Program-made: the position numbers and the translations under genes | Notes under the pieces: model-generated | What the model was told of the DNA's origin: nothing | What the model saw: only the letters and a program-made list of their open reading frames with translations | Database searches by the model: none | Part shown: piece by piece, positions 57 through 55,636 of the stretch | Layout: every line of letters starts with the position of its first letter | Numbering within the stretch: the first letter of the stretch is position 1 | Assembly (NCBI GenBank): GCA_964519665.1 | Contig: CAZFIV010000008.1 | Location: 14,913-78,912, forward strand | From: an uncultured Myxococcales bacterium | GTDB taxonomy: Bacteria; Myxococcota; Kuafuiibacteriia; Kuafuiibacteriales; Kuafuiibacteriaceae | Direction: 5' to 3' | DNA: 64,000 bases

Positions 57-1157
57 ATGTTGCTCCGGATCGCTAGCGCCGCCCGCTGGCTCAGTTTCAT
101 TGCCATTGTCGTGTTCGCGGCCGGCCAGCCGGCCACCGCGTGGAGCCAGGAGCCTCCGCCCGATTCTTCCGAACTTCGGGTGGGAATCAGCCCGTTCGCC
201 CCCTTCGTGGTGGATGGTCCATCGCCCGAAGGCTACAGCATCGATCTCTGGGAAGAGATCTCCCGCCGGATCGACCGAAAGTACAAGTTTGTCATGTGCA
301 AAGGGGCCGCCGACAAGCTCGAGCGACTTCAGCGCGGCGAGCTCGACGTCGCCATCGGCGGGTTGACCACGTCTCGCGAGCGCGAGAGTCAGATCGACTT
401 CACCCACGCGACGTACCGCTCCGGCCTGGGGATCATGCTGGCCGGCCAACCGACCCCGCCGACGGTCTGGGATCGCATCTCCGGCGCCCTCAGTCGGGCC
501 AACTCGACGATCGTCATTGCGTTCATCCTATTCGTGGTCGTCGCGGGCAACCTGGTCTGGCTCTTCGAACGAGGCAAAGACAGCTTCGACCGGCGTTATC
601 TGCCGGGGCTGTTTGAAGGCATGTACTGGGTCGTCGTCACCGCCAGCACCGTCGGCTACGGCGACAAAGCGCCGCTGAAGTACTCAGGCCGCATCCTAGC
701 CATGATCATCATCATCATTTCCTTGCCCATGTTTGCCCTCTTTACGGCCGAGCTCGCGTCGGCGTTCACTCTTCAGAGCATCACCGCGGCGGTCAGTGGG
801 CCCGAAGATTTGATCGGAAAGAAGGTTGGCGTCATCCGTGGCACGTCATCGGCCAGGTTCGCCGCCGAACGGGGCCTATCGCTCCGCCAAGTCGACAACG
901 CCGAGCAGATGTATGAAACGCTCCTCGATAACAAGGTCGCGGCGGTCATCTACGATGCACCCAGCCTCAAGTATTTCGAGCAAACGGAAGGACAAGACAA
1001 AGTGTATCTCGCGGAGCGCACCTTCGACATCCGAGACCTCGCGATCGCCACCCGACAGGGCAGCGCGCTGCGCGAACAGATCAATCGGGCCATTCTCGAT
1101 TTGGAAGCCACCGGCGAGATGACCGAGCTGCGAGTAAAGTGGTTCGGAAGCCAGTGA
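57..1157 (+). CDS. Ligand-gated potassium channel, GluR0-like (periplasmic solute-binding domain split by an M1-P-M2 pore)
   Basis: A signal peptide is followed by a type-3 solute-binding-protein lobe 1 (LRVGISPFAPFVV...DVAIGGLTTSRERESQIDFTHATY). TM helix M1 follows, then a pore loop with the canonical K+ selectivity filter TASTVGYGD (nt ~642-668), then helix M2 (ILAMIIIIISLPMFALF). SBP lobe 2 follows (KKVGVIRGTSS...VAAVIYDAPSLKYF). This S1-M1-P-M2-S2 topology is that of prokaryotic ionotropic glutamate receptor homologues. Confidence 0.8.
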   Translation: MLLRIASAARWLSFIAIVVFAAGQPATAWSQEPPPDSSELRVGISPFAPFVVDGPSPEGYSIDLWEEISRRIDRKYKFVMCKGAADKLERLQRGELDVAIGGLTTSRERESQIDFTHATYRSGLGIMLAGQPTPPTVWDRISGALSRANSTIVIAFILFVVVAGNLVWLFERGKDSFDRRYLPGLFEGMYWVVVTASTVGYGDKAPLKYSGRILAMIIIIISLPMFALFTAELASAFTLQSITAAVSGPEDLIGKKVGVIRGTSSARFAAERGLSLRQVDNAEQMYETLLDNKVAAVIYDAPSLKYFEQTEGQDKVYLAERTFDIRDLAIATRQGSALREQINRAILDLEATGEMTELRVKWFGSQ

Positions 1158-9804: not shown

Positions 9805-9854
9805 TGGCTTAAGGTTGCCTACTACCTGCCGATCGGTGTGGGCTAGAGAGCTGC

Positions 9855-11750: not shown

Positions 11751-11792
11751 CCCGCGAACCTCGAGGCTCCTGAATAACGGGTACGCCCGACG

Positions 11793-13862: not shown

Positions 13863-13991
13863 GGTCACGGCATGAGACGCCGCCGAATCGACCGATTCGG
13901 CTCGACGATGTACGACACTGCCGCCAACTAGATCGTGCGGAAGACGAACTTCTCTTCGAACTCGGCTTCGGGAGCAGTAAGCTAGCCCCGA

Positions 13992-27298: not shown

Positions 27299-29479
27299 CT
27301 ACTTCTTGAAAGCGCCGCCCACGGCGCCGTTGCCCCGGCTGCCTGGCGAACTCGACCGCTGTTGATTGGCCAGGAGCCGTAACCCCCGCGCCGCCTCAAC
27401 GTTGTTGGGTTCCCACTCCAGGCACCGCTGCCACCACTTTTGCGCCTCGACCGGATTGCTGCGAGCATACGAAATATTGCCGAGGTACTGGTACGCCACC
27501 GGCAGGTTCTCTTGCTCCTGCACGGCCTTTTTCAGCAGCTGTACGGCCTTCGAAAGGTTCACCGGAGAGTTCGGGTCGAGGCTGAAGGTGACCCAGCCCA
27601 GGGTGGCGAAGTAGATAGGGTCTGGGTTGAGACGTACGGCTTCGGCCAAGACTTGCTGCGCGTTCGGAAAGTCTTTGCGCCGGATCATGTTCATCGCCTG
27701 GTCAAAGAGCTGCTCGCCTCGCAGGATTTCATTCACATCGGTCGGCAAGCCTTTGGCTTTACGGTCGAGGTAAATGATGTACTCGGGTCGCTTGGTCGGA
27801 TCGGTGATCGTTTCGTAGGCTTCGGTGATGCGCGCGAAGATCTCATTGAGCTTTTGCTGCGCCGGGCCGAGGTCGACATCGGAAAACCCGTCTATGTGCC
27901 ACTTTTTGGCGAGCTCGAAGTAGGCAGCCTTAATGTCGGCCTCGGGCGTGCGGCGGGTCGCCCGAAAGATTTGAAAGAAGTCCTGCGACATAATTTCCGC
28001 GTGAAACCGGTTGACCCGCGCCTGGGCCCGCTGATCGGCACCGAGCGCTCCCCGAGCGGTGCCATCGTCAGGACCGTCGTCGAGCTCGAGCACCAGACTG
28101 CCGTTATCGCGGTCGAGGTTCTCGATTTCGGCCGCCGCCACGTTGACCGCGACCTCCATCGCGTTGTCGTCGTTGACTTCGGGCAGAACGGTCATGCCGC
28201 TGGTGACCAGCCCGAATAGTTGCGGCACGATCGTGGCCGCTTCGGAAGCACGAACCCGGGAGAGCTGCCGATACGTCTTGCTCCCGTCGATGTGACCAGC
28301 GACGGTCACCCCACCGAACACCCGCTGAAAGTACGGCAACAACCGCTCGAACTCGGTCGTCGGCACCAGCGGCACATCTTCGCGTCCGACGAAGAACTTC
28401 AGGATCTGAGGCGGATGCACGTGCTGCTTGATGCCTTCGAAGAGGACCTGGACAGGTTCGAAGCGACCTTCCGGCACTCGACCCACGAAGGCATCGGTTT
28501 CGCGCCAGCGATAATTCCCGAACGCCATCCCCAGAGCGAGCGGCAGGAGCTGCCCCGCCAGCAACTTGTAGGCCGTCGCAAGGTCGGCCTCGGTCACGAG
28601 CCGCAGCTCGAGCAGACTCTGCTGCAAGGTTCGGGCGCGGTCTTTCATGAACCGGAGGCACCGTTCGAAATCGGGCTCGGTAATGCGACCGCGGTGCAAG
28701 AGCAACGCGCCGACGTTTTCGCTCTCGGCGTTCGACTGCATGAAAGTCGGGTTGCCGTCGATGATGTAGATGCGGCGGTGGGTTCCCGCATCGTTGTTCA
28801 TGTCGAGCATGCCCGTTCCCCGGTCGTATCGAACCGTCGACAGCAGGAGGGCGACCGGCAACTCCTCGAGGGACCCGGCCTCCGCGAGTCTCGGAAAGGG
28901 CCGCCCATGAAAGACCCCATCGACGATCTCGCCCGCCTGGTCGGCCACCGAGGCGCCCGAAACGCCGGACAAGGCCGAGGTCACGGAGTACCCCCGCCCG
29001 GACACCGGGCGAGCCGCGTGGGCGGTCGCCAGTTCGGCCGGGTCGGCGTTGTGCAGCCGTAAAGAGGCGTGGCGCGCCGGCGGTTCCGACTCGAAGGCGC
29101 TCGTGGGTACGTCGAGCAACGCGTCCGCAATGATCTCCTCGAGTCTGCGCAGGTCGAGCGGCTTCGAGAGGAAATCCACGACCTGATACTTGTCGCGAGC
29201 TTCAACGGCGGTCTTCGGATTCTTGAATACCCCGCTCATCATCACGATCGCCGTGTGGGGCGCATCGCTCGAACGGATCGCCTCCGCCACCGCGAAGCCG
29301 TTTTTCTTCGGCAGCAGAAAATCGATGAGCGCGAGGTCGGGTCGAGACCGCTGGAAGGCCTCGATGCCATCCTCGCCATCCACCGCGACGGTCACCCGAT
29401 ATCCGCGGCCCTCCAGGTACTCGTGCAGCAAGTCCCGGATGGCCTCCTCGTCGTCTACGACCAGCACCCGATGCGGCAT
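27299..29479 (-). CDS. Response-regulator receiver fused to a DUF4388-like domain, a degenerate J-domain and C-terminal TPR repeats
   Basis: The receiver MPHRVLVVDDEEAIRDLL...DLALIDFLLPKKNG...LSKPLD has its Asp and Lys residues in place. A DUF4388-like block follows (LEELPVALLLSTVRYDRGTGMLDM...NVGALLLHRGRITEPDFERCL). The J-domain-like segment DFFQIFRATRRTPEADIKAAYFELAKKWHIDGF has HPD replaced by HID. TPR repeats follow at the C-terminus. I take the ATG at 29479 as the start. Confidence 0.8.
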   Translation of the reverse strand: MPHRVLVVDDEEAIRDLLHEYLEGRGYRVTVAVDGEDGIEAFQRSRPDLALIDFLLPKKNGFAVAEAIRSSDAPHTAIVMMSGVFKNPKTAVEARDKYQVVDFLSKPLDLRRLEEIIADALLDVPTSAFESEPPARHASLRLHNADPAELATAHAARPVSGRGYSVTSALSGVSGASVADQAGEIVDGVFHGRPFPRLAEAGSLEELPVALLLSTVRYDRGTGMLDMNNDAGTHRRIYIIDGNPTFMQSNAESENVGALLLHRGRITEPDFERCLRFMKDRARTLQQSLLELRLVTEADLATAYKLLAGQLLPLALGMAFGNYRWRETDAFVGRVPEGRFEPVQVLFEGIKQHVHPPQILKFFVGREDVPLVPTTEFERLLPYFQRVFGGVTVAGHIDGSKTYRQLSRVRASEAATIVPQLFGLVTSGMTVLPEVNDDNAMEVAVNVAAAEIENLDRDNGSLVLELDDGPDDGTARGALGADQRAQARVNRFHAEIMSQDFFQIFRATRRTPEADIKAAYFELAKKWHIDGFSDVDLGPAQQKLNEIFARITEAYETITDPTKRPEYIIYLDRKAKGLPTDVNEILRGEQLFDQAMNMIRRKDFPNAQQVLAEAVRLNPDPIYFATLGWVTFSLDPNSPVNLSKAVQLLKKAVQEQENLPVAYQYLGNISYARSNPVEAQKWWQRCLEWEPNNVEAARGLRLLANQQRSSSPGSRGNGAVGGAFKK

Positions 29480-29545
29480 CGCGTTTTGTCGGCCCCAGGA
29501 GGGCCCACCCTTCTCCCGTGATGGCCCTACCACGCGCCCCGACGG

Positions 29546-32562: not shown

Positions 32563-33966
32563 TCAGACCACGGCCGGGCGGCTCGATTCATCGAGCCCTT
32601 CGGCCTCCACCGGCGCCGCGACCCGCACCAATTCGAGCAGATTGGTCGTTCCGAGGGCGTCGGTGCGCGCTTGGTCGCCTCGTTGGAGACGTGCTCGAGC
32701 CAGCCGACCCGCTGGGTCGTCCTGTCGGCCCGCCACTTCCGCTTGAGTGCCGGCGGTCTGCAATACGTTGACGACGTCAGCGAGGGTCATCGACTCGAGC
32801 GGCCGACCAGGCACGTACGCGGTGTCTCGACCGTCGCGGGTCGACGTTTCCGCCAACAGCTCGGCCTCCACCAAGGCGCCGAGCACCAGCCGGGCCAACC
32901 GGGCCGAGATCCGTGCCTCGTCGAGCAACATCTCGATCGACATGACGCCTTGCCCTCGGTTGAAGTGATGCGCCACCGCCAACATGAGTCGCGCGGCGAC
33001 GAGTTCTTTTTCGCGCTGGGAGTTGGGGCGTTCGGGCTCGTAGGTTCCCGCTGACTGGACGGCGAACGTCACGGTCGCTCCCAGCAGCGCGACCGTCCAG
33101 CTAACGTACAACCAAATGATGAAGAGCGGAACCGCTCCCAGCGATCCGTAGATCGCGGAGTACGAGATCGCGTTCGCCGCGTACACCGCGTACAGCTGCT
33201 GGGCGATCACCCACAGGGTTCCGGCCACCGTGCCCCCGACGCCCGCGGAAGAGATAGCGACCCGCGTGTTGGGCATGAAATGATACAGCAGCGTAAACGA
33301 TACGCAGGTCAGAAACACCGGCACTACCCGGCCGAACAAGCCCACGATTGGGATCGTGTCGACGACCTGCTTCACCGCATCGCTCGCTTCGAAAGACGCG
33401 GTCAGAGACAGCGATAACCCCAGCAGCAGCGGTGCGATCGTGAGCAACGGCCAATAGACTTGGAACCGCTCCACCCAGCTCCGCCCCTTGGTGACGCCCC
33501 AGATGTCATTAAAGGCGGTCTCGATGTTGGCGAGGGTCGATATGACCGTGAAGAACAGCACAATCAGGCCGATCGCGCCCAGACGGCCTGCGTGCACCTG
33601 GCCCACGAACTGGTCGAGATAAGTGAGGACTTCGTCCTGGTTCTGAACCGCCAGCACGTTGACGATGAATCCCCGCAGCTGCTGTTGAACGTCTCGAAGC
33701 CCCCCAAACGCGGTAAAGATGGAGAACACCACCGCCAGCGCCGGTACCAGCGACAATAGGGTCATGTACGTGAGCGCGGCCGCTCGCAGCCGAATCCGCT
33801 CCCGACGGAACGCGTCTACGACAATGTAAAGAATCCTCGCCAAGAGGTAGAGCACCTCGGTCAATGGAGGCTGATCGGCGCGAAGGCGGTTGGCATCCCA
33901 TATCTCACGGGTCCAGAAGCGCTTCTGCTTCCGCCAGAGGGCGATCCAGTAATCGGCGCGCGCCAT
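32563..33966 (-). CDS. YihY/BrkB-family membrane protein with a C-terminal cytoplasmic extension
   Basis: The N-terminal signature is RAAALTYMTLLSLVPALAVVFSIFTAFGGL, and about 6 TM helices are present. The extra roughly 170-aa C-terminal domain is common in this family. Confidence 0.85.
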   Translation of the reverse strand: MARADYWIALWRKQKRFWTREIWDANRLRADQPPLTEVLYLLARILYIVVDAFRRERIRLRAAALTYMTLLSLVPALAVVFSIFTAFGGLRDVQQQLRGFIVNVLAVQNQDEVLTYLDQFVGQVHAGRLGAIGLIVLFFTVISTLANIETAFNDIWGVTKGRSWVERFQVYWPLLTIAPLLLGLSLSLTASFEASDAVKQVVDTIPIVGLFGRVVPVFLTCVSFTLLYHFMPNTRVAISSAGVGGTVAGTLWVIAQQLYAVYAANAISYSAIYGSLGAVPLFIIWLYVSWTVALLGATVTFAVQSAGTYEPERPNSQREKELVAARLMLAVAHHFNRGQGVMSIEMLLDEARISARLARLVLGALVEAELLAETSTRDGRDTAYVPGRPLESMTLADVVNVLQTAGTQAEVAGRQDDPAGRLARARLQRGDQARTDALGTTNLLELVRVAAPVEAEGLDESSRPAVV

Positions 33967-34007
33967 ATCCGCACCATAGCAGTCTCGTGTGGTAAACCAA
34001 CGATCCG

Positions 34008-35555
34008 ATGGTTGCGCGGCCCGATCGACCCATCGACGTCAGTGATCTCGACCTATCCGAGCTTTCCAAGGGCCCCTCGATTCGTCAGGATGCGCAAGCT
34101 CCGCTGCACCGCCTGCTGGGTCAGCCAGTGGGTCTCGAAGGCCTCTCCCGACTGTTTCAGCCGTCTTTCCCTGGCGTCCGGACCTTCGCCATCGGAGTCC
34201 GCGCAACGCCGGATCAAGCCGTCGAGCTCACGCTGGTCGGCATCGCCCGCGACGGCGTACCGGTATGGACGGGAACCCGCACGTTCAGTCGAGGGCCCAG
34301 CGGCGGCCTCGAAATGGACATCGGGTTCGATGAGGTCGATCCCCGCTTTCGCTCCCGCAACATCATCGTCGATGCGGTGACCCGGCAAGTTCAGCTATTG
34401 CGTCGACTCGACGGCAGTCCGCCGTGTCGGCTGACGATCGATGCCGACGGAACGGGCCGCTACGTGTGCGCGCTGCACGGCTTCGTCTTCGCCGATGAGA
34501 CCGAAGAAGGACCGTCGCCGCGCTCACGATGGGCAATGGCGCCGGCCGGCGACCGAGCGCGGATCATCGAAACGGGGCAGACGATCATCAAGGCTCACGC
34601 CGACCGACTGGGACTCGGCAAGCTCGCGTTGGAGGACGCGATCGAGCAGCTGCGAGCGGCTCGATCGGGCTGGGACCTGGCTCGGCTCAGCTTTTCGGAT
34701 TCGTCTTTTCCGCCCGACGCCGACTCCGATGAGGCCCTCGGCATCGGTCCCCTCGGTCGCGCGCTGCTGCTCGACGACTCGACGCCGGGCTGGCGCGGCG
34801 CGCTGTACCCCGACGAGCGGTTCTGGGAGCTGAACCAACGCGGCGACGCTTATCGTCGTCATAAAACCGCGCGTTCTCGAGCCAGGCTTCGACTCGAGGT
34901 CGAAATGGCGCGACAGGGGCTTTCGAGCCCCCATCGGGCCGAGCGCATTCGCAGTCTGGAGACGCTCGGTCGCGTCGGGGACCCATCGATTGTTCCAGAG
35001 CTGAACGCGTTCGCATCCGGCAAAGAACGGCGGATGGCCGCGCTGGCTCGGCGGATGCTGGACCTGATCCATGGCAACGGCCTTGCCGAACGGTTGTTGG
35101 AGTACGCAAACGATACGCGACATCCTACGCGGCAGAGGGCGTTGGCCTATCGCGTCTTGGCTGAACATTTCCCGAAGCATCTCGCCGAAAAAACCCCCAT
35201 GCTTCGTGTTGATCCGGACGCGCGCATCCAGCGGGCCGCCGTTCCTTTGGTCGCGCGGCAGCCGCATGACCCGGGCCCAGCCCTGGCCGCGATGCTGGCC
35301 GCAAACCCCCTCGACAGCGCCGACCGACAACGGCCGGGGCTCGCCGCACTGCGGCTCGACATCATCGAGTGGCTCACGATTTTGGCCGACCCACGGACGT
35401 TGCTTCCGCTCAGTCTCGCATTTCAAAATCAGCCACCGCCCCCGCCCGCAGAGGCGCTTGCTCTGTCTCGGGCCATCGTCACGTTCAACGATCCTCGCGC
35501 CAAGATGGTATTGCGCGCCGGCAGCTTTCCCCTGACCCGCCCCGACGTGCCTTGA
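34008..35555 (+). CDS. Hypothetical protein with C-terminal HEAT/PBS-lyase-like repeats, directly upstream of the MglA paralogue
   Basis: Repeated helical hairpins are present (ERIRSLETLGRVGDPSIVPELNAF; RALAYRVLAEHFP; DARIQRAAVPLVARQP). The roughly 200-aa N-terminal portion is mixed alpha/beta and unassigned. Confidence 0.6.
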   Translation: MVARPDRPIDVSDLDLSELSKGPSIRQDAQAPLHRLLGQPVGLEGLSRLFQPSFPGVRTFAIGVRATPDQAVELTLVGIARDGVPVWTGTRTFSRGPSGGLEMDIGFDEVDPRFRSRNIIVDAVTRQVQLLRRLDGSPPCRLTIDADGTGRYVCALHGFVFADETEEGPSPRSRWAMAPAGDRARIIETGQTIIKAHADRLGLGKLALEDAIEQLRAARSGWDLARLSFSDSSFPPDADSDEALGIGPLGRALLLDDSTPGWRGALYPDERFWELNQRGDAYRRHKTARSRARLRLEVEMARQGLSSPHRAERIRSLETLGRVGDPSIVPELNAFASGKERRMAALARRMLDLIHGNGLAERLLEYANDTRHPTRQRALAYRVLAEHFPKHLAEKTPMLRVDPDARIQRAAVPLVARQPHDPGPALAAMLAANPLDSADRQRPGLAALRLDIIEWLTILADPRTLLPLSLAFQNQPPPPPAEALALSRAIVTFNDPRAKMVLRAGSFPLTRPDVP

Positions 35556-35601
35556 CCCGCCGCTTGGCCGGTTGGAAACTCTCAGCTCCCAGCGGGTTTA
35601 C

Positions 35602-36621
35602 ATGCCGACTTACAACTACAAGTCCCGCGAGCTCATCGCGAAAATCGTCTACTACGGCCCCGGTCGGTGCGGTAAGACCACGAACTTGCAGCAGATCCAC
35701 GCGCGGATGCGTCCGGAAACGCGAAGCGACCTGCTCAGCGTGGCGACCGAAACCGATCGCACGATCTACTTCGACCTGCTGCCTCTCAATCTGGGGACCA
35801 TCAGCGGGATGAAGTTCATGGTCCGGCTCTTTACGGTTCCGGGTCAGGTCTACTACAGCGAGACGCGCAAGCTAGTCCTAAAGGGCGCTGACGGCATCGT
35901 CTTCGTCGCTGATTCCCAAGACCACATGGTAGATGAGAACCGCCAGTCGCTTCATGACTTGAAGACGAACCTGGCGGCCAACGGGCTCGATTACAACACG
36001 ATCCCGCTGGTGCTGCAGTGGAACAAGCGGGACTTGCCGCATCTCATCCCCGAAGCGGAGCTCGACTCGACCTTGAATGACCGGGGCGTCAAGTCGATCA
36101 ACGCCGTCGCGTCGCAGGGCACCGGCGTACTCGAAACCCTCCGCCATATTACTCTGGCCGTGTTCAATCACATCAAGGCTGGGGGCCAGGTCGGTCCGGC
36201 GCCCCGCGCTCGGCCGGGCCAAGCGATGCCTCCTCCCCCGCCGCCGCCCGAAGGGACCGCGAACGCCAGCGGGCCGACAGCACCGCCCAGTGAAGCCCCC
36301 GGAGGCCGGCAGGCGGTCGGCACCGTCGCTCCCGGTTCGTGGTCATCGTCCATCCCGCGCGCGAACCCCGGCCCCGACGCGAGTGGGGCCGCCACACCAG
36401 CCGTATCGGCAAGGCAACCTGCACCACCGCCGCCTCCGCCGCGCGAGGGACCTTCGGGCATGGCGATCAGCGCCGATATGGTGGTCGAAGAGTTCAAGCA
36501 TCTCGCGGTGGTTCAAAGCCAGATGAGCGAGCGCCTGAGCTCACTCGAAAGCGAGCTGGCTCGACTTGGGCGCGAAAATCAAGAGATCCGCGAGATATTG
36601 GCACGACACATCCGCGCCTGA
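35602..36621 (+). CDS. MglA-family Ras-like GTPase with a roughly 150-aa Pro-rich plus coiled-coil C-terminal extension
   Basis: The product is about 55% identical by eye to M. xanthus MglA over about 195 aa. Shared features are the P-loop YYGPGRCGKTT, the switch region TETDRTIYFDLLPL (Arg-finger-equivalent R), TVPGQ (catalytic Gln), NKRD and a terminal KAGG. Then follow PPPPPPPEG...PPPPPPREG and a heptad coiled coil (EEFKHLAVVQSQMSERLSSLESELARLGRENQEIREIL). An ATG at 35602 is in frame with the longer track ORF. Confidence 0.85.
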   Translation: MPTYNYKSRELIAKIVYYGPGRCGKTTNLQQIHARMRPETRSDLLSVATETDRTIYFDLLPLNLGTISGMKFMVRLFTVPGQVYYSETRKLVLKGADGIVFVADSQDHMVDENRQSLHDLKTNLAANGLDYNTIPLVLQWNKRDLPHLIPEAELDSTLNDRGVKSINAVASQGTGVLETLRHITLAVFNHIKAGGQVGPAPRARPGQAMPPPPPPPEGTANASGPTAPPSEAPGGRQAVGTVAPGSWSSSIPRANPGPDASGAATPAVSARQPAPPPPPPREGPSGMAISADMVVEEFKHLAVVQSQMSERLSSLESELARLGRENQEIREILARHIRA

Positions 36622-37264
36622 TCTCCGCGGAACAGCCTATCCGTTCGCCTTCCGTCAAGTGTCAGTTGCCCAACAAACAGTATTCCTAGTTTCGGGACCC
36701 ACGACTCAACACTGCGACCGACTATCCGATCAATCTGGGTTTGGCATTGGTCGTGGTTCACGATCGACGGTCGTCCGAGGTCCGCGGACAACTTTCAGAT
36801 GAGCGCTGGTATCGCTTGGCGGACCGCAGGGCTGTGCTAAGATAATTATAGTGGTTGGCCACGACGACCAAACGCTGGCCGTTTCCAGATACTCTGAGGG
36901 CGAGCGGCACAACGAGGCCGAGGTCATCGACCTCGTTCGCCTGCCTTTGGGTACCCGGCCGACGCCCATATGCGAGGTCGAATACGACGAAGTCCCTCGG
37001 CTGCGGCAGATGGACTGCGACTTCTACCAGCGGTGCCTAGGGTTTGCGGCGCAAGTTCGCTGGCGTAGCTTTCATTGTCGGCAGTGCCCTCGACATCCGG
37101 ATCGCGTAGCCCGAGATCCGGCTGCCGCCGACGCTGAGCCGCGCCCATTGCCCCACAACGTTATCCCTTTGCGAGAGCTTTGATCGCCCTTTCGGTTCAA
37201 GTGAGGTCACCGACGCCATGGGCTGAGTGACAGCTCCGGTGATGCCTGCTAGCGTGGAAGGTCG

Positions 37265-38425
37265 ATGGAGCTCAATGACGTCTTGTCCGTCGCCGTCAAG
37301 GGGGGCGCTTCGGATATCCATCTGAAAGCCGGATTGCCCCCGATGTTTCGGGTCAACGGCAAGCTCGTGCCCCTCAAAGACCGTCAACGTCTATCTCCCG
37401 AGGAGATGTCTCGGATGGCGTTGGCCATCATGAACAACTACCAGCGAGAGCGATTCAAGCAATACAACGAGATGGACTTGGCGTACGGCGTCCCGGGGCT
37501 CGGGCGCTTTCGCGTCAACGTGTTTCAGCAGCGCGGCACCGTCGGCATCGTTCTTCGGGTCATTCCATTCAAGCTCCGTTCGCTCGACGACCTCAAGCTA
37601 CCGCCGGTCCTCAAAGAGATCGCCATGGAAGAGCGAGGCCTGGTCCTGGTCACCGGCACGACGGGGTCCGGTAAGAGCACCACCCTGGCGGCGATGATCG
37701 ACCATATCAACACGTCGAAGACGGTCCACGTGATGACGGTTGAAGACCCGATCGAGTTCCTCATTCGCGATAAGCGCTCGGTGATCAATCAGCGTGAGGT
37801 CGGGGTCGACACCCTGTCGTTCAGCCAAGCCCTCAAATCCGCGCTGCGCCAGGATCCCGACGTGATCCTCGTGGGTGAGATGCGCGACCTAGAGACGATC
37901 GAAACCGCGCTGCTGGCCTCGGAGACCGGTCACCTGGTCATGTCCACCCTGCACACCCTTGACGCCACGGAGACCGTATCCCGGATCGTGGCTGTATTCC
38001 CTCCTCACCAGCAGCGGCAGATTCGCCTCCAGCTGGGAGCGACGGTCAAAGCGATCCTGAGCCAGCGGTTGGTCCCGACCCGCGACGGGGCGGGCCGGGT
38101 CGCAGCACTCGAAATACTTCGAAGCACGCCCCGAATCCGAGAGATGATCGAGGACAAAGACCGAACCAAAGAGCTACCCGAAGCGGTCGCCGAAGGCGCT
38201 TCCACCTACGGCATGCAGACCTTCGACCAAGCCCTTATGGGTCTCTTAAAAGCCAAGATCATCAGCTACGACGAAGCGCTCAAGCAGGCGACCAACCCCA
38301 GTAACTTCGCGCTTCGCGTCCAGGGCGTCGAATCATCGTCCGACTCCAAGTGGAACGAGTTCGAGCGAAACGAAGGGACCGGCGTTCATCGGTTGCCGCC
38401 GACGCGTCGTCCGTCGCGAACCTGA
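37265..38425 (+). CDS. pilT: Type IV pilus retraction ATPase PilT
   Basis: The start MELNDVLSVAVKGGASDIHLKAGLPPMFRVNGKL and the Walker A motif VLVTGTTGSGKSTTLAAMIDHIN fit, as do the PilT-specific C-terminal motifs. A GGAAGG RBS lies 4 nt upstream. Confidence 0.9.
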   Translation: MELNDVLSVAVKGGASDIHLKAGLPPMFRVNGKLVPLKDRQRLSPEEMSRMALAIMNNYQRERFKQYNEMDLAYGVPGLGRFRVNVFQQRGTVGIVLRVIPFKLRSLDDLKLPPVLKEIAMEERGLVLVTGTTGSGKSTTLAAMIDHINTSKTVHVMTVEDPIEFLIRDKRSVINQREVGVDTLSFSQALKSALRQDPDVILVGEMRDLETIETALLASETGHLVMSTLHTLDATETVSRIVAVFPPHQQRQIRLQLGATVKAILSQRLVPTRDGAGRVAALEILRSTPRIREMIEDKDRTKELPEAVAEGASTYGMQTFDQALMGLLKAKIISYDEALKQATNPSNFALRVQGVESSSDSKWNEFERNEGTGVHRLPPTRRPSRT

Positions 38426-38429
38426 CCCG

Positions 38430-38888
38430 ATGCGACGGGGTCCACGGTCCCAAACCCCGCTTGCCGCAGCCATGCAGCTGCTGGCCCGTCGCTCCCATGG
38501 GCGCGCCGAGCTCAGCAGAAAGTTGCGACAGAAAGGATTCGACTCGGCCGCAGTCGATGAAGCGATCGACCGAGCTCTGGAGCTCGGTCTCACCGAAGCC
38601 GATGATCGAGTGGCCCTGCGATACGCCACCGAGTTGGCCGATAAGAGCGGGTCTACGCCCCGCTGGGCGGAGCATAAGCTCCGTTCTAGGGGATTTTCAG
38701 ACTCCTCGATCCGAGCCGCGATCGATGCCGCCTTCGCCGACTGGGATGCCCGGGGTGCGGCACTTTCGTACGTCGGCAGCGACGAAAATGCCCCTCGGGT
38801 AGCCCGAAGGCTCGAGAGAAGGGGCTTTCCTGCCGATGTGGTAGGGTGGATGGTCCGGCATCTGCAGTCGGACCCCGAGGAGATGTGA
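38430..38888 (+). CDS. recX: RecX-family regulatory protein
   Basis: The 152-aa product is made of three helical repeats (ALQLLARRSHGRAELSRKLRQKGF; DRALELGLTEADDRVALRYA; RRLERRGFPADVV) typical of RecX. No recA is adjacent. Confidence 0.75.
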   Translation: MRRGPRSQTPLAAAMQLLARRSHGRAELSRKLRQKGFDSAAVDEAIDRALELGLTEADDRVALRYATELADKSGSTPRWAEHKLRSRGFSDSSIRAAIDAAFADWDARGAALSYVGSDENAPRVARRLERRGFPADVVGWMVRHLQSDPEEM

Positions 38889-40660
38889 AGTTGGGTGCTT
38901 TTGCGGATGTGCCAGTAGGAAGGAACAAAGGGACGCCGGTGCCCGACCATCCGAGATCGCCGCCCCAGGGCCGTCGCCCCCGCTACGAGCTGCTTCGGGT
39001 CGTCAACCGAGGAGGCATGGGGGAGATCGCGCTCGCCAAGGCGGTCGGGACCAAGGGCTTCGAAAAGCTCGTCGTGCTCAAGCGCCTGCGGGCCGATGCT
39101 GAACGCGACGATCACGTCGCGATGTTCGACGTCGAGCAGGAGGTCATGTCCCGCATCGAGCACCCGAACATCGTCAAGGTCTTCGACCAACCGATCGTCG
39201 ACGGCGTTCCTTACATGGCGATGGAGTACGTACGGGGCCGCAACCTCGACCAGGTCGTGCGGTCCGCCAATCACGCCGGCGATGCGCTTCCGTACCAGTA
39301 CTGTTTGACCGTGGTGAGCGAGGTCCTCCGAGGCCTCGCCTTTGTGCACCGCCTCAAGGACGCCGAAGGTCGAGCGTTGGGCGTCGTTCACCAGGACATG
39401 ACGCCCAGCAACGTGATGGTCTCGTTCTTCGGCGAGGTCAAAATCACGGACTTCGGAATCAGCTACGTCACGTCCCGCGATGGCGGCCTTCGCCGCGGCG
39501 TGCTCAAGGGCAAACCCCGATACGTCGCACCTGAAGTGCTCGCCGGTAAACGGGTCAACAATACAGCGGACATCTACGGAGTCGGGGTCGTTCTGTTCGA
39601 AATGCTCACCGGGCGCGCCCTGTTCGCCCGGCCGTCGGTCAAAGAAACGCTCTCCGCCGTCGCCCGCAACGAGCTACCGAATCTGGCCGAGGAGCTGGCC
39701 GATTTCGGTCCCGGCATCGTTGCCGTCATGGAGCGAGCCCTGAAGAAGGCGCCGAGCGAGCGCTACCGGACGGCCGAAGAAATGGCCGCCCACATCCTGA
39801 ACGAGCTCGCCAAACTTGGCGGCCCGATGCCGCCCGCGAATCTGGGCTTTCTGACGCGCAAGTACTTCAGCAACGATCCCGACGTTCCGGAGATCGACCC
39901 GGCGCTCGAGCAAGCCATCCGGCATGGCTCGGCATCCACTCCCGAGCTGGCGCCCAAAGACCTCGAATCCACCTTGCTCGAGCTCGACAAGCTGCTCGGC
40001 AAGGACGACTCGGTCGACCTCTTCTCGGTGCCCGAAGACATCATGCCGGAGCTCCGAGAGCTGCCGGACATGGATCCTTTTCAGGCGCATACCCCCCTGC
40101 CGGAATTCGTGCGCGACGCGAAGAGCGACGAAGAAATCCTCGCTAGGGCCGGCGTTCACCTCACGACGAACGCCGTCGAGTCGATGTTCGATGCTCCGCC
40201 CCGGGGCGGCGGCCTCACGAAAAAAGACCCGCCCTTTCCCTATGCCCCTCAGCAGCTCAAGCTGGCTCCGTTCGACTTTGCACCGGCGCCCACGTCGCCC
40301 TCCTCGGCGTGGACACCGGCCGAGCTCCTGCCACAAGTCGACGATGGTCCCACCATCGACCAGGCCACCGAGGCGCCAGAACCACTCGACGGCCGCCCGT
40401 CGTTATTGGAGCCCGGTCCCCACTCGCCTGCCCAACCGAGACCGGAAACCCCACCGTGTGAGGCCCCCGAGCCCAGCCTGGACCACGAAGGACCCAACGC
40501 CAAACCGGCAACTTCGGAATTTCTTGAACCCGACCCCCACCCCACACCCGCGCATGTGATCCAGACTGACAGTTGGTCTGGAGTCTGGGTGGGGTTCGCG
40601 TTCGGATTTGCAACCGGACTGGCCGCCGGCGCCATCCTGTACGCCGCGTTGACTCACTGA
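38885..40660 (+). CDS. Ser/Thr protein kinase with a Pro-rich linker and a C-terminal TM anchor
   Basis: Present are subdomain I RGGMGEIALAK, VVLKRL, HQDMTPSNVMV, KITDFGISY and APE. The C-terminus has a TM helix (VWVGFAFGFATGLAAGAILYAAL). The start is taken as the GTG at 38885 or TTG at 38891, downstream of a GAGGAG RBS. The track ATG at 38846 would overlap recX. Confidence 0.85.
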   Translation: MKLGAFADVPVGRNKGTPVPDHPRSPPQGRRPRYELLRVVNRGGMGEIALAKAVGTKGFEKLVVLKRLRADAERDDHVAMFDVEQEVMSRIEHPNIVKVFDQPIVDGVPYMAMEYVRGRNLDQVVRSANHAGDALPYQYCLTVVSEVLRGLAFVHRLKDAEGRALGVVHQDMTPSNVMVSFFGEVKITDFGISYVTSRDGGLRRGVLKGKPRYVAPEVLAGKRVNNTADIYGVGVVLFEMLTGRALFARPSVKETLSAVARNELPNLAEELADFGPGIVAVMERALKKAPSERYRTAEEMAAHILNELAKLGGPMPPANLGFLTRKYFSNDPDVPEIDPALEQAIRHGSASTPELAPKDLESTLLELDKLLGKDDSVDLFSVPEDIMPELRELPDMDPFQAHTPLPEFVRDAKSDEEILARAGVHLTTNAVESMFDAPPRGGGLTKKDPPFPYAPQQLKLAPFDFAPAPTSPSSAWTPAELLPQVDDGPTIDQATEAPEPLDGRPSLLEPGPHSPAQPRPETPPCEAPEPSLDHEGPNAKPATSEFLEPDPHPTPAHVIQTDSWSGVWVGFAFGFATGLAAGAILYAALTH

Positions 40661-45968: not shown

Positions 45969-47078
45969 CTATAGCAGCAGAAAAGCGACGAACGCCGCGG
46001 CGGCGAGAAAGAAGACCGCTCCTAGGATCAGAATCATGAGCTCCCAAGCGGCGCCCTTTCGGGTGACCTTCTCGATCTCACTGTTCATCGCCCGAAGGAC
46101 TTCGGGGTCGACGCCGTCGTCGATGACGGGAGGCGGCCCGGTGTTGGGAGGCGACAGTTCCAGGCCGTCGTCGACGGGGGCCGGAGGTTCATCGACGTAT
46201 AGGTCGGACGCGGCGTCCGGTACGTCGGAGACCTCAGGCATCGCATGGTCGAACTCGCGACTATCCCCGGCCGCCGTATCGTCGGTGGCGCGGGGACCAA
46301 GGCCCGTTTCTTCCGGTCCGCCCATCTGATCAAGAAGCCGAGAGGGAGGATCGATGAAGATGAGTTTCACCCCACCGACCTGCAGTTCGTCGCCGTCCTT
46401 GAGCATTGGAGCGCCGTCGATCTGCTTACCGTTGAGCAGGACACCGTTCTTACTTGCCAGGTCTTGGGCAGTAAAACCGTGCCAGTTGCGCTTGATCAGG
46501 CAGTGCCGGCGCGAGGTGTTCTGGTCATTGAGGGTGATGTCGCAGTCAGGGCTCCGACCGATCGTGATCTCCGCGGCGTCCTCCGACAGCTCGAAGCGGC
46601 GCCCCTCATCGGTGCCGTTCATGATGCGCAGCGCGGGCGGATCCGCCTGATTGGAGCCCAGCGACGCTAGCACTTCCTGGACCATCCGGCGGGCGAGCGC
46701 CTCGGTCTTCTCGCCGGGCTTGCGGTCGAGCATCGTGCCGACCGTGGTCTTGAAGGTGATGTGAAACGACATGATTTTGATCATGTCGCCGTCGCGAAGG
46801 AGGCGCTTTTCGCCAGGCGCAACCTTGCGGCCATTGTGTTCAGTGCCGTGGGTAGAGCCGAGGTCTTCGAGGAAGTAGTCCCCCATCTCGAAAAAGATTC
46901 GCGCATGACGCCGAGAAACCGTCGTTAGGGGCACTTGAATGTCGTTGGCGGGGTCGCGGCCGAGCGAGATGACCGACTGCTGAAAGTCGTAGGAAAACGC
47001 GCGGGGCTCCCGTTGGGGGAGCGTCAGTTCGACTTTCAGATGAACTGGCGGGGTTTGCCTAGCAGCCGACTCGCCCAT
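45969..47078 (-). CDS. Dual-FHA-domain protein with a C-terminal TM anchor
   Basis: FHA1 is ISLGRDPANDIQVPLTTVSRRHARIFF...LGSTHGTEHNGRKV. FHA2 is ITIGRSPDCDITLNDQNTSRRHCLI...DLASKNGVLLNGKQI. The protein ends in a TM helix (LMILILGAVFFLAAAAFVAFLLL). Confidence 0.85.
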   Translation of the reverse strand: MGESAARQTPPVHLKVELTLPQREPRAFSYDFQQSVISLGRDPANDIQVPLTTVSRRHARIFFEMGDYFLEDLGSTHGTEHNGRKVAPGEKRLLRDGDMIKIMSFHITFKTTVGTMLDRKPGEKTEALARRMVQEVLASLGSNQADPPALRIMNGTDEGRRFELSEDAAEITIGRSPDCDITLNDQNTSRRHCLIKRNWHGFTAQDLASKNGVLLNGKQIDGAPMLKDGDELQVGGVKLIFIDPPSRLLDQMGGPEETGLGPRATDDTAAGDSREFDHAMPEVSDVPDAASDLYVDEPPAPVDDGLELSPPNTGPPPVIDDGVDPEVLRAMNSEIEKVTRKGAAWELMILILGAVFFLAAAAFVAFLLL

Positions 47079-49979: not shown

Positions 49980-52814
49980 TTGACACCGCCAAAGTGCCGA
50001 CTCTACCGTTTGGAACCCATGCAAGCCCCTGAGACCGCCCCCCCTTTCCCACCCAACGGCGAGCCCGTCGATATCCAAGCCGGCGACCGGGTGCAGCACC
50101 TCGCGGTGCGAGCCCCCGAGATTCAGCGCCGCGGTGTCGAGGTCGACCGGATGTTCACGCAGCCCGGGGAGCAGGTCTGGGACACCGTCCAATGGGAGAA
50201 GCGAACCGCGACGATCACCGACGGCAAGGGTCAGGTGGTCTTCGAGCAAACGAACGTCGATGCGCCATCCTCCTGGAGCCCGCTCGCGGTCAACGTCGTC
50301 GCGTCGAAGTATTTCCGGGGGCACCTGGGAACCAAGGAGCGCGAGACGTCGGTCAAGCAGCTCATCAAGCGGGTGGCCCACACCATCTACGAATGGGGTC
50401 GCGCCGACGGGTACTTCGAGACACAAGCGGACGCCGAGGCGTTTCGCGACGAACTGACGTTCATGCTCCTTCACCAGTACTACGCCTTCAACTCGCCAGT
50501 CTGGTTCAACGTGGGCGTCGAGCCTCATCCGCAGTGTTCAGCCTGCTTCATCAACTCCGTGGACGACTCCATGGAGTCGATCATGGAGCTTGCGAAGACT
50601 GAAGCGCGCCTCTTCAAGGGCGGGTCGGGCGCCGGCGCCAATCTCTCGAAGATTCGGGGCAGCATGGAAAAGCTGAACGGCGGGGGAACCGCCTCCGGCC
50701 CGGTGAGCTTCATGCGCGGGTTCGACGCGTTCGCGGGGGTCATCAAGTCGGGCGGCAAGACCCGCCGGGCGGCGAAAATGGTCATCCTGGACTGCGACCA
50801 TCCAGACATTCAGGCCTTCATCGATTGCAAGGCCGACGAAGAGAAGAAGGCGTGGGCCCTGATCGAGCAAGGGTACGACGGCTCCTTCACCGGCGAAGCG
50901 TATGGTTCGGTCTTCTTTCAGAACGCCAATCACTCGATCCGAGCGACCGATGACTTCATGCGGGCCGCCGTCGAAGACCGCAAGTGGACGCTTCACGGTC
51001 GCCATGACGCGAGCATCACTTCCGAGGTCTCGGCCCGGCAGCTGCTGATGTCGGCGGCCGAGGCCACCCATGTGTGTGGCGACCCCGGCATCCAGTACGA
51101 CTCGACGATCAACCTTTGGCACACGTGCCAGGCGACCGACCGCATCAACGCCTCGAATCCGTGCTCCGAGTACATGTTCCTCGACGACTCGGCCTGCAAC
51201 CTGGGGTCGCTCAATCTCCTGCGATTCGCCGACGAAAACGGCGAGTTCCAGACCGAACGCTTCCGCCATGCGTGCGTGATCGCCACGATGGCGCAGGAGA
51301 TCATCGTCGACAACGCGAGCTACCCGACCGCTCTCATCGCGCAGAACAGCCACGACTACCGGCCACTGGGGTTGGGGTACGCCAACCTGGGCGCCCTCTT
51401 GATGGCGCGCGGTGCTCCCTACGACGCCGACAGCGGGCGAAACCTGGCCGCGGGCATCACGGCGCTCATGACCGGTACGGCGTACGCGACCAGCGCGGAG
51501 ATCGCCCAAGCGCGCGGGCCGTTCACCGGTTACCTCGCGAATCGGTCCTCGTTCCTCAGCGTCATGAACATGCACCGCGACCACGCGTACGCCCTCGATG
51601 ACGCCATGATTCCGGCCGACCTTCGCACCGCGGCGCTGCGCGCCTGGGACGAGGTCGTCCGGCGCGGCGAAGTCCACGGCTTCCGAAACGCCCAGGTCAG
51701 CGTCCTCGCTCCCACGGGCACCATCGCCTTTATGATGGACTGCGATACGACGGGCATCGAACCGGATATCGCCCTCATCAAATACAAGCGCCTCGTCGGC
51801 GGCGGCATGCTGAAGATCGTCAACCAGACGGTTCCGCGGGCCCTGCACCGGCTCGGCTACTCCGAAAAAGAGATGGCCGGGATTCTCGAGTATATCGAGA
51901 AGGAAGAGACGATCGAAGGCGCTCCATTCCTCAAGGACGAGCACCTGCCGGTGTTCGACTGCGCCTTCCGGGCCCAAAAGGGCACTCGCTCGATCGCTCC
52001 GATGGGCCATATCAAGATGATGGCGGCCGTGCAGCCCTTCCTGTCCGGCGCTATCTCGAAGACCGTCAACGTGCCGGAAGACGCGAGCGCCGACGACATC
52101 TTCGAAATGTACGTGCAGGCGTGGCGGCTGGGCCTGAAGGCGGTCGCCGTCTATCGCGACAACTCGAAGCGCTCGCAACCACTCGCGACCAACAAAGACA
52201 AACAGTCAGGCCCGCAAAACGCCTCGACCCCGACCGGCACGGATGCAAAGCCCTGGCGCCGGCCGCTGCCCACCGAGCGGGCCGCCATTACCCACAAGTT
52301 CGCGGTCGGCGGTCACGAAGGCTACCTCACGGTCGGCCTCTACGACGACGGCACCCCAGGAGAACTGTTCATCACGATGTCCAAGGAGGGGTCCACGATC
52401 TCCGGCTTGATGGACACCATCTCCACATCGATTTCGCTGGCGCTCCAATATGGTGTTCCTGTGGGCGTGCTGGTCGATAAGTTCAGCCACATGCGGTTCG
52501 AGCCATCGGGCTTTACGGGCAACCCGAACATCCCGATTGCGAAGTCGATCGTCGATTACATCTTCCGCTGGATCGGTCAGAAATTCATCAAGACCGAAGA
52601 GGCTGTCGACTCGACGATGAGCACCCAGGCGGAGCGAGCGCTTCAGGCGGCTCTCGGCCAAAATCAGATGTCGCTGCCGATGGAGAGCTACGAAAAAGAG
52701 GTCTTTCGAACCCAAGCCGACGCTCCGCCCTGCCCTCAGTGCGGAAGCATCACTGTGCGGTCGGGGGCCTGCTACGCGTGCACCAACTGCGGCGCGACCA
52801 CCGGGTGTAGTTAA
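49980..52814 (+). CDS. nrdJ: Adenosylcobalamin-dependent ribonucleotide reductase (class II)
   Basis: The active-site region is NPCSEYMFLDDSACNLGSLNL, and the C-terminal Zn ribbon is CPQCGSITVRSGACYACTNCG. The length of about 930 aa is typical of myxobacterial and actinobacterial NrdJ. The start may be the Met at 50019. Confidence 0.9.
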   Translation: MTPPKCRLYRLEPMQAPETAPPFPPNGEPVDIQAGDRVQHLAVRAPEIQRRGVEVDRMFTQPGEQVWDTVQWEKRTATITDGKGQVVFEQTNVDAPSSWSPLAVNVVASKYFRGHLGTKERETSVKQLIKRVAHTIYEWGRADGYFETQADAEAFRDELTFMLLHQYYAFNSPVWFNVGVEPHPQCSACFINSVDDSMESIMELAKTEARLFKGGSGAGANLSKIRGSMEKLNGGGTASGPVSFMRGFDAFAGVIKSGGKTRRAAKMVILDCDHPDIQAFIDCKADEEKKAWALIEQGYDGSFTGEAYGSVFFQNANHSIRATDDFMRAAVEDRKWTLHGRHDASITSEVSARQLLMSAAEATHVCGDPGIQYDSTINLWHTCQATDRINASNPCSEYMFLDDSACNLGSLNLLRFADENGEFQTERFRHACVIATMAQEIIVDNASYPTALIAQNSHDYRPLGLGYANLGALLMARGAPYDADSGRNLAAGITALMTGTAYATSAEIAQARGPFTGYLANRSSFLSVMNMHRDHAYALDDAMIPADLRTAALRAWDEVVRRGEVHGFRNAQVSVLAPTGTIAFMMDCDTTGIEPDIALIKYKRLVGGGMLKIVNQTVPRALHRLGYSEKEMAGILEYIEKEETIEGAPFLKDEHLPVFDCAFRAQKGTRSIAPMGHIKMMAAVQPFLSGAISKTVNVPEDASADDIFEMYVQAWRLGLKAVAVYRDNSKRSQPLATNKDKQSGPQNASTPTGTDAKPWRRPLPTERAAITHKFAVGGHEGYLTVGLYDDGTPGELFITMSKEGSTISGLMDTISTSISLALQYGVPVGVLVDKFSHMRFEPSGFTGNPNIPIAKSIVDYIFRWIGQKFIKTEEAVDSTMSTQAERALQAALGQNQMSLPMESYEKEVFRTQADAPPCPQCGSITVRSGACYACTNCGATTGCS

Positions 52815-55381: not shown

Positions 55382-55636
55382 TCAGAAGACGCCGCCTAAG
55401 CTGATGAGCGGCGACGGTGCGCCGACCACCCCGGGATCGTCCGGTGCTTGGGTCTTCGTACGGAGCAACGGGATCGTCAAGCCCAACGCGGTCCCCAGGA
55501 ACGCACCCACGACGACGTCCGTCAGGAAGTGCTTGCCGGCGACGACCCGGGTCGTCCCAACGCCGATCGCCCCGAAGTCAGCCCAGCTGCACCGACGACC
55601 AATGCCCCATCTCGCACGGATGAAAGACCGGCTCAC
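55382..55636 (-). CDS. Small ORF with a PAP2 phosphatase motif-3-like segment (possible gene remnant)
   Basis: The segment RVVAGKHFLTDVVVGAFLG resembles the SRxxxxxHxxxD C3 motif of PAP2 enzymes, but motifs 1 and 2 are absent. A GTG start overlaps the upstream stop (GTGA). Confidence 0.3.
   Translation of the reverse strand: MSRSFIRARWGIGRRCSWADFGAIGVGTTRVVAGKHFLTDVVVGAFLGTALGLTIPLLRTKTQAPDDPGVVGAPSPLISLGGVF

Follow-up and report, generated by a model that had tools for sequence, protein, structure and literature searches.

A stretch of 64 kb from an uncultured Myxococcales genome (contig CAZFIV010000008.1; hereafter the window) carried a run of consecutive genes on the forward strand (34008-40660) that included an MglA-type small GTPase with a long C-terminal tail, named here MglA-long. 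Its gene lay between that of a protein joining a GNAT-like domain to HEAT repeats (GNAT-HEAT) and that of a small protein with four invariant cysteines (Cys4); genes for a PilT-family ATPase, a RecX-like protein and a Ser/Thr kinase followed. We read this run as a clade-specific cassette of uncultured Myxococcota, built around an orphan MglA-type GTPase that would switch the neighbouring PilT-type motor. This interpretation is tentative, and we place it a little short of an even chance. The cassette probably connects a known polarity switch with type IV pili in a new manner. All conclusions rest on sequence, predicted structure and gene order. Homologous loci were numbered from L001.

Residues 3-196 of MglA-long matched the structure of M. 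xanthus MglA (6h17) with E=4.8e-63 and that of T. thermophilus MglA with E=1.2e-51; identity to the M. xanthus protein was 52%. An Arg beside the G2 Thr, a G3 motif TVPGQ and a G4 motif NKRD are the hallmarks of Group 1 MglA proteins as defined by Wuichet and Sogaard-Andersen in 2015 (PMC4316618). The MglA catalytic residues claimed in the original prediction, the Arg in TETDRT and the Gln in TVPGQ, were present as Arg53 and Gln82. Arg53, the intrinsic arginine finger, stood beside the G2 Thr54, and G3 read T78-V79-P80-G81-Q82 instead of DxxGQ; both residues of the pair, TVPGQ and the G4 motif NKRD were invariant in 95 homologues. The P-loop GPGRCGKT agreed with the G1 motif GxxxxGKT and carried one family-specific change, Arg22 replacing Leu22 (GPGRCGKT against GPGLCGKT), with Gly21 kept. 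Judged by these motifs, the GTPase is a Group 1 MglA homologue, and its G domain, nearly invariant across the family, retains every residue that MglA-style GTP binding and hydrolysis require. The protein started with MPTYNYK directly at the G domain, with no N-terminal extension; nearly all homologues began in the same way, indicating that the ATG at 35602 is the true start.

At 339 aa, MglA-long exceeded the single-domain length of approximately 195-200 aa by a conserved tail of 143 aa. The 120 best clusters were listed in the homologue search (there are at least 120), all of them from uncultured Myxococcota or 'Deltaproteobacteria' metagenome-assembled genomes (MAGs), and family motifs were counted in 95 aligned members. 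Most of the listed clusters covered 97-100% of MglA-long at 55-90% identity, showing that the tail is family-wide and not the product of a frameshift; approximately 30 of the 120 matched just 57-90% of the protein, mainly the G domain. The Pro-rich spacer and C-terminal heptad coiled coil described in the original prediction were recovered as a Pro-rich linker and a heptad-patterned helix at residues 291-338. Linker length ranged from 55 to 210 residues across the family (median 101), with a composition of 20% Pro, 18% Ala, 11% Gly and 11% Ser. The linker was predicted to be disordered, the AlphaFold2 (AF2) predicted local distance difference test score (pLDDT) being <50 at residues 199-273, and a short motif, PGxWS, was found in it in 46 of 95 members. 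Residues 291-338 were modelled as one helix of 48 residues (pLDDT 87-96). The motif at the start of the helix, EF[KQR]x[LV]A, was retained in 93 of 95 members, so the extension, whose absence from orthologues had been named as the finding that would count against it, is real. Within the helix E297, F298, A302, E310, R311 and E316 were invariant. In the best heptad register 71% of the a/d positions were hydrophobic, with Asn326 at a core position, and the charge count from the sequence was net acidic. A net-acidic heptad helix favors a coiled coil or protein-binding helix and disfavors a membrane anchor.

In a neighbor-joining tree of G domains from 42 loci, the tailed family and its sister at L007 fell outside all sampled MglB-coupled MglAs (Myxococcota, Acidobacteriota, Nitrospirota, Gemmatimonadota and other phyla). 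The identity matrix of the same domains gave 46-56% between the tailed family and canonical MglAs of any phylum, and 78-94% among the canonical Myxococcota MglAs. Tailed-family G domains were 77-97.5% identical among themselves, while the neighbouring 515-aa protein fell to 38-50%. The separate clade and these identity values indicate a distinct, strongly constrained subfamily, divergent and paralogue-like, which does not correspond by vertical descent to M. xanthus MglA. The sister protein at L007 was 59-60% identical and carried the C-terminal helix motif (QEFQNLAVLHHRLTERVAQLEKELQRVGQEHQDLKRIV) among other neighbours, indicating that the tail predates the present cassette.

Tails of other kinds were seen on further MglA homologues. 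Those of 362-376 aa from Ignavibacteria-like and other MAGs (L013:10001-11089, L018:4171-5301 and also L066) had, at L013 and L018, linkers that were either Pro-rich or acidic, and at their ends polybasic amphipathic segments (KKKKKRFFLFRWFSRDKD; KGKKRKFGLFSLFRKRKK) that resembled eukaryotic hypervariable membrane anchors. Acidobacteriota-type and Nitrospirae MglAs (L011:10001-, L065:276- and L016:10001-; 304-470 aa) carried other C-terminal extensions, either a short helix at the terminus or an acidic linker joined to what may be a further C-terminal domain. MglA tails thus appear to be widespread and diverse, and C-terminal targeting tails analogous to eukaryotic hypervariable regions would recur on MglA in several phyla.

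MglA/MglB is the best-understood bacterial small-GTPase polarity switch, and its known regulators are the Roadblock proteins MglB, MglC and RomY, plus RomR/RomX. Coupling to mglB within four genes is typical of mglA but not universal, 59 of 449 MglAs being orphans (PMC4316618). The M. xanthus MglB sequence was used as tblastn query; it was 100% identical to a Corallococcus locus (L063) and 98% to Cystobacter. As a control, this query found MglB, down to 24-32% identity, beside approximately 50 of 77 canonical mglA loci among the matches listed. Nothing was found with it in the window (best E=0.17) or within approximately 8-10 kb of MglA-long in 13 related loci (L001-L006, L085-L087, L089-L091, L094), and Pfam scans of approximately 40 window proteins gave no Robl_LC7/Roadblock domain. 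The earlier statement that no MglB stands beside the GTPase therefore holds for the window and for these 13 loci.

The protein encoded immediately upstream had been described in the original prediction as carrying C-terminal HEAT repeats and possibly a divergent Roadblock domain at its N-terminus. The repeats were confirmed; the N-terminal domain was not Roadblock-like and had a GNAT fold in the AF2 model and by Foldseek. The family comprised 88 clusters at 90% identity, all of approximately 500-520 aa and all from one clade of Myxococcota/'Deltaproteobacteria' MAGs. Its AF2 model (86 sequences) had a pLDDT of 91.5 and a predicted template modelling score of 0.90. Residues 270-505 formed tandem helical hairpins that fitted HEAT models, and the family profile matched alphaRep sequences with E=3.5e-8. 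In the predicted structure, the N-terminal domain had the alpha/beta fold of GNAT proteins, with the secondary-structure order alpha-alpha-beta-beta-beta-beta-alpha-beta-alpha, and its matches in an independent Foldseek search included nourseothricin acetyltransferase, NatD, Naa50 and a tandem GNAT. Roadblock/LC7 and longin folds were rejected, as no such structure appeared in either fold-match list. GNAT motif A reads h-x-P-x-y-Q/R-g-x-G-h-G, and the coenzyme A (CoA) pyrophosphate loop reads Q/R-x-x-G-x-G/A. The beta4-alpha3 segment of the N-terminal domain, (I/V)DPxY(Q/R)SRNITVDL (VDPRFRSRNIIVDAV in the window), aligned with motif A but had Asn and Thr at two glycine positions. The CoA-loop consensus was YQSRNIT (Q-S-R-N-I-T), with R117 invariant and N118 in at least 90% of sequences, and so differed from the canonical loop. 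A second segment, RYVCALHGFVF, resembled GNAT motif B. No Acetyltransf Pfam model, nor any Pfam family even at E<=1, matched the N-terminal domain, and hhalign of its profile against one bona fide GNAT sequence gave no signal. As modelled, the domain appears GNAT-like with a degenerate CoA motif, and cofactor binding is uncertain; the degenerate motif A makes the enzymatic activity of the protein uncertain as well.

A search of the N-terminal profile against 1.84 billion representative proteins returned 72 proteins, and for 39 of these E was <=1e-10. Remote relatives beyond the family were 350-800 aa long (E 1e-21 to 1e-4), and HEAT_2 repeats were also present in 5 of 10 that were scanned, indicating that a GNAT-like domain with HEAT repeats is a rare but wider architecture. 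At three remote homologues a small gene started at or just before the stop codon of the GNAT-HEAT-like gene (L098:2068-2256, L100:1961-2161, L099:3399-3668). The small products were acidic and Cys-free, and two were mutually homologous (MKDE...VEDhP...EDE..WH). They were considered as relatives of Cys4 and rejected as unrelated.

Downstream of the GTPase gene, a structured spacer of 640 bp leading directly to pilT had been proposed, and neither part of that description survived. The interval 36622-37264 (643 bp) held an open reading frame (ORF) of 110 aa at 36851-37183. Gene callers placed two small genes between the GTPase gene and pilT in relatives, and the first of these was the window ORF, the Cys4 gene. 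Its product was 54-80% identical in L001-L004 by tblastn, and the gene was also found in L005, L006, L085-L090, L092 and L094. In the alignment C56-x5-C62-x13-C76-x2-C79 was invariant and the flanking motifs were kept. The Cys4 family numbered 107 clusters and was confined to the MAG clade in which GNAT-HEAT occurs, and no family in a Pfam scan matched the protein. The second small gene, which in many relatives followed Cys4 and preceded pilT, encoded a beta-rich protein of 161-172 aa with a signal peptide (L002:9347-9865, L003:9503-9988, L004:9677-10183, L095:10381-10893). It was missing from the window, L001, L005, L006 and L086. Both small genes were considered as MglB-like and rejected, one encoding Cys4 and the other the signal-peptide protein.

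The 229 nt before the Cys4 gene folded no better than shuffled sequences (z=-0.11) and no Rfam match was found in the spacer, and a structured RNA was rejected on both counts. Conservation with L001 was limited to the final ~50 nt of this gap (36803-36850). The conserved block read TTGGCG, 16 nt and TGcTAAGAT, a pair resembling a -35 and an extended -10 element, and stopped 7 nt short of the GTG with which the Cys4 gene begins. A terminator and sigma-70 consensus scan of 33900-38500 gave nothing above background, the block itself being below threshold. The pair suggests that Cys4 and pilT may be transcribed from a promoter of their own, and the block could drive a near-leaderless transcript.

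The pilT product was confirmed as a member of the PilT/PilU family by TIGR01420 (470 bits, cut-off 319). The Walker A (GTTGSGKST), Walker B (DVILVGEMRD) and His (GHLVMSTLHT) boxes were all found in the sequence. The best match in the PDB was the T. thermophilus PilT entry 5fl3 (379 bits), above Geobacter and P. aeruginosa PilT and PilU. The canonical PilT motif is AIRNLIRE; this position read RIREMIED in the window protein and YVRELLKD in 5fl3. No other pilus gene was present in the window. In M. xanthus there are four PilT paralogues, with roles that are partly unknown (PMC13584747). Clusters of the order mglA-mglB-pilT-pilT were found in Ignavibacteria-like and Zixibacteria MAGs (L013, L018, L066), indicating that linkage of MglA and PilT genes is a recurring theme. 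The position after pilT was variable: a methyltransferase gene occupied it in L004 and L092, and no RecX match was found between PilT and the kinase in L087, L089 and L090. The C-terminal half of the kinase was Pro-rich with a terminal hydrophobic segment, and from its sequence the protein looks tail-anchored. As listed, the kinase gene begins at a GTG and shares 43 nt with the end of the RecX gene; translation may in fact begin further downstream.

The three ORFs on which the original prediction was built, at 34008-35555 (515 aa), 35602-36621 (339 aa) and 37265-38425 (386 aa), were all present on the + strand. The gaps along the core were 46 bp from GNAT-HEAT to the GTPase gene, 229 bp from there to the Cys4 ORF and 81 bp from the Cys4 ORF to pilT. 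Seventeen independent GNAT-HEAT loci were examined among the matches listed (the window, L001-L006, L085-L092, L094 and L095). The order GNAT-HEAT, MglA-long, Cys4, (secreted beta-rich protein), PilT, (RecX or methyltransferase), Ser/Thr kinase recurred across 38-72% identity of the GNAT-HEAT protein, and with it the conservation of GNAT-HEAT, MglA-long and pilT across relatives, proposed for testing in the original prediction, was observed in most loci. MglA-long directly followed GNAT-HEAT in 15 of 17 loci. Cys4 and then PilT came after it in 13 of the 14 with enough downstream sequence, the exception being L091. The kinase was downstream in every locus with enough sequence except L091, and was present in L092 too. 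By a cruder measure, 52 of 88 GNAT-HEAT clusters and a listed MglA-long cluster had longest contigs of equal size. Independent ENA, NCBI, JGI and Logan assemblies all carried the cassette, in some cases on closed contigs (3.3 and 11.5 Mb). The flanks varied: BrkB was present or absent, extra genes were inserted, M17 was relocated in L085, and Mnh antiporter genes lay upstream in L095. GNAT-HEAT and Cys4 proteins share one phyletic range, and the conserved cassette to which they belong also encodes a PilT paralogue and a kinase.

Two loci, L092 and L088, had no MglA-long gene, and they were the most divergent relatives. In L092 (a 620-kb contig, 38% identity; 9806-14609) GNAT-HEAT was followed directly by Cys4, and both MglA-long and PilT were absent, the one locus of their joint absence; PEGA, REC-DnaJ, S49, BrkB, GNAT-HEAT, Cys4, methyltransferase, kinase and M17 were retained. 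In L088 (1877-3808) the Cys4 gene came directly after GNAT-HEAT with no MglA-long between them.

Coordinates of the cassette genes and their parts in the window
Feature	Position	Strand	Basis or detail
GNAT-fold/HEAT-repeat protein, 515 aa, full gene	34008..35555	+	ORF, family of 88 clusters, AF2 model
N-terminal alpha/beta domain, aa 1-268	34008..34811	+	GNAT-like core aa ~27-170, helical insert aa ~182-255, closing strand aa 262-266
C-terminal HEAT-repeat domain, aa 270-505	34815..35522	+	
MglA-type G domain of MglA-long (339 aa), aa 1-196	35602..36189	+	PDB 6h17 match, invariant motifs
Disordered Pro/Ala/Gly/Ser-rich linker, aa 197-290, with PGSWS short motif	36190..36471	+	pLDDT <50 (199-273)
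C-terminal helix/short coiled coil, aa 291-338, with last residue and stop codon	36472..36621	+	pLDDT 87-96
Conserved non-coding block, promoter-like, upstream of the Cys4 gene	36803..36850	+	conservation with L001
Small protein, 110 aa, four invariant Cys (Cys4)	36851..37183	+	tblastn, alignment
PilT-family hexameric ATPase, 386 aa	37265..38425	+	TIGR01420
RecX-like protein, variable cassette position, 4 bp after pilT	38430..38888	+	Pfam RecX_HTH1 E=6e-19
Ser/Thr protein kinase, Pro-rich region and C-terminal hydrophobic segment	38846..40660	+	Pfam Pkinase E=1e-36

In the mechanism that we propose, MglA-long would act as a nucleotide switch, its tail dimerising the GTPase or tethering it to a fixed partner in the manner of eukaryotic hypervariable tails. 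The GTP form of the G domain would recruit or release the neighbouring PilT-type retraction ATPase and would thereby set where or when type IV pili retract. This role for the PilT motor is drawn from the analogy with MglA and SofG, which sort PilB and PilT, and from the joint absence of MglA-long and PilT in L092. By parallel with the TPR proteins SgmX and Bd2492, the HEAT solenoid would be the likeliest docking surface for the GTPase. The GNAT-like domain, with its altered CoA loop, could be a binding module or an acyltransferase modifying a component of the cassette, and Cys4 is a probable metal-binding adaptor.

Several observations weigh against this switch. GNAT-HEAT, Cys4 and the kinase are not strictly dependent on the GTPase, because they were kept without it in L092, where PilT was also gone, and because GNAT-HEAT and Cys4 were direct neighbours in L088. 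At L007 the sister MglA-long adjoined neither GNAT-HEAT nor PilT. At L091 (12597-16071) MglA-long was followed by unrelated small and secreted-protein genes, with no Cys4 or PilT; this arrangement may be an insertion or rearrangement. Shared ancestry may account for part of the conservation, much of the surrounding 15-20 kb being syntenic as well. The gap of 229 nt with its promoter-like block suggests two transcription units. Finally, G21, which is kept here, has been linked to genomes having MglB (PMC3983030).

A rival view takes MglA-long for an ordinary paralogue of MglA that a canonical MglB (and RomR/RomX), encoded elsewhere, controls in trans, with GNAT-HEAT and Cys4 as neighbours by descent. 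We consider this unlikely, though it deserves serious weight. Retention of G21 (PMC3983030) and conservation of all switch residues speak for it; the same type of GTPase stood without cassette neighbours at L007, GNAT-HEAT and Cys4 persisted without it at L092 and L088, and synteny reached well past the cassette. However, the core order was kept at GNAT-HEAT identities of 38-50% while the flanks were rearranged (BrkB, M17, Mnh), the adjacency held in 15 of 17 loci, and GNAT-HEAT and the GTPase gene were on the same strand just 46 bp apart.

Equally improbable to us, but not to be neglected, is a core formed by GNAT-HEAT, Cys4 and the Ser/Thr kinase as a modification or signalling module, with Cys4 as the main partner of GNAT-HEAT and with MglA-long and PilT as an accessory pair. 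L092 had just such a set, with a methyltransferase and with neither GTPase nor PilT, and in L088 GNAT-HEAT adjoined Cys4 directly. Both families (88 and 107 clusters) were confined to the same clade, and the remote GNAT-like/HEAT homologues occurred outside the cassette, followed by a different small ORF. However, only two loci lacked the GTPase, both of them the most divergent, and in the other 15 its gene lay exactly between those of GNAT-HEAT and Cys4; the degenerate GNAT motif A also leaves enzymatic activity uncertain.

A bolder extension of the proposed switch is doubtful. GNAT-HEAT would substitute for MglB as a regulator, either as a non-Roadblock GTPase-activating protein (GAP) or guanine nucleotide exchange factor (GEF) or as an acyltransferase acting on the GTPase or PilT, and Cys4 would be a metal-dependent adaptor coupling the GTP-bound MglA, tethered by its coiled coil, to the PilT hexamer, giving a self-contained polarity switch for retraction that is independent of MglB. 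The role of GNAT-HEAT as an MglB-replacing GAP/GEF is weakened because its N-terminal domain is not Roadblock-like and because the protein persists without the GTPase. A local frameshift, mis-assembly or annotation artefact behind the tail or the gene arrangement was ruled out for practical purposes, since most of the top 120 listed clusters covered 97-100% of the query, the helix motif was in 93 of 95 members and the same cassette appeared in the ENA, NCBI, JGI and Logan assemblies, closed contigs included.

Upstream of the cassette, the opposite strand encoded a BrkB/YihY-type membrane protein, an S49 peptidase and a REC-PATAN(DUF4388)-DnaJ-TPR protein. Two PATAN(DUF4388)-DnaJ proteins were found in the window, at 27299-29533 (-) and 55633-57567 (-). 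The first had an N-terminal receiver domain and C-terminal TPRs and was syntenic with the cassette in most related loci. PATAN proteins sometimes adjoin Group 1 and Group 5 mglA genes (PMC4316618). At 57-1157 (+) a periplasmic solute-binding domain was joined to a K+-channel pore (SBP_bac_3, Ion_trans_2, Lig_chan), as in a prokaryotic glutamate-receptor-like channel. A pair of adjoining hybrid histidine kinase/receiver proteins (9855-13862, +), a double-FHA protein with YscD-like domains (45969-47078, -) and a class II (B12) ribonucleotide reductase with a TSCPD domain (49980-52814, +) had no obvious link to the cassette. In PADLOC, no defence-system model matched GNAT-HEAT, the GTPase or Cys4, and the kinase had only generic kinase matches (PD-T4-6).

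A literature search found no paper describing this cassette. If the proposed switch is right, a constrained MglA-type G domain with a built-in tether, encoded with a GNAT-like/HEAT protein and Cys4 in place of MglB, would amount to a different regulatory solution, and the cassette offers concrete candidate partners for the switching of orphan MglA-type GTPases such as SofG. With MglA of M. xanthus and T. thermophilus, MglA-long shares the G-domain family (52% identity), the Arg finger, TVPGQ, NKRD and a genetic link to type IV pilus ATPases. However, those proteins have approximately 195 aa and MglA-long has 339 aa, with a linker and helix; here there was no mglB within ~10 kb, Arg22 replaced Leu22 and the G domains formed their own clade. 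MglA-long is presumably much closer to MglA than SofG is. The N-terminal extension of SofG reportedly mediates binding to the bactofilin BacP; MglA-long, in contrast, has no such extension, and the window showed no bactofilin gene. Like MglA-long, SofG is an orphan Group 1 MglA-type GTPase with the intrinsic Arg, extensions beyond the G domain and a tie to the pilus ATPases (PMC4085708, PMC4316618). In M. xanthus, MglA and SofG sort PilB and PilT, and SofG acts with BacP (PMC4085708).

Bdellovibrio MglA, which works without MglB, binds the TPR protein Bd2492 and controls type IV pilus formation at one pole (PMC3983030). The likeness to the cassette is an MglA without MglB together with an alpha-solenoid repeat protein, here a candidate partner by gene adjacency. 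The Bdellovibrio protein has Ser21 and its TPR partner is encoded elsewhere, whereas MglA-long has Gly21 and its candidate partner, a GNAT and HEAT protein, is encoded immediately upstream. The MglA effector SgmX is likewise an alpha-solenoid TPR protein that binds MglA (PMC7668184). A Hanks-type kinase gene close to an mglA-type gene is also known from M. xanthus, where MasK is encoded next to mgl and is linked to pilus-dependent motility (PMC3546991), and kinase genes were found upstream of mglBA in Cystobacter and Myxococcaceae loci (L027, L043, L050). In contrast to the kinases of these loci, that of the cassette was encoded downstream on the same strand, was approximately 33-35% identical in the kinase domain and had its own Pro-rich/hydrophobic C-terminus. 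GNAT-HEAT resembles NatD/Naa40, Naa50 and Nat complexes with helical-repeat auxiliary subunits in combining a GNAT domain with a helical-repeat scaffold; it differs from NatD/Naa40 and Naa50 in having no Acetyltransf Pfam match and a CoA loop reading Q-S-R-N-I-T. Finally, MglA-long shares with eukaryotic small GTPases with hypervariable tails the plan of a G domain, a flexible linker and a short C-terminal targeting element. Unlike those tails and the polybasic ends at L013 and L018, it ends in a net-acidic heptad helix, which suggests protein-protein or coiled-coil contacts rather than membrane binding.

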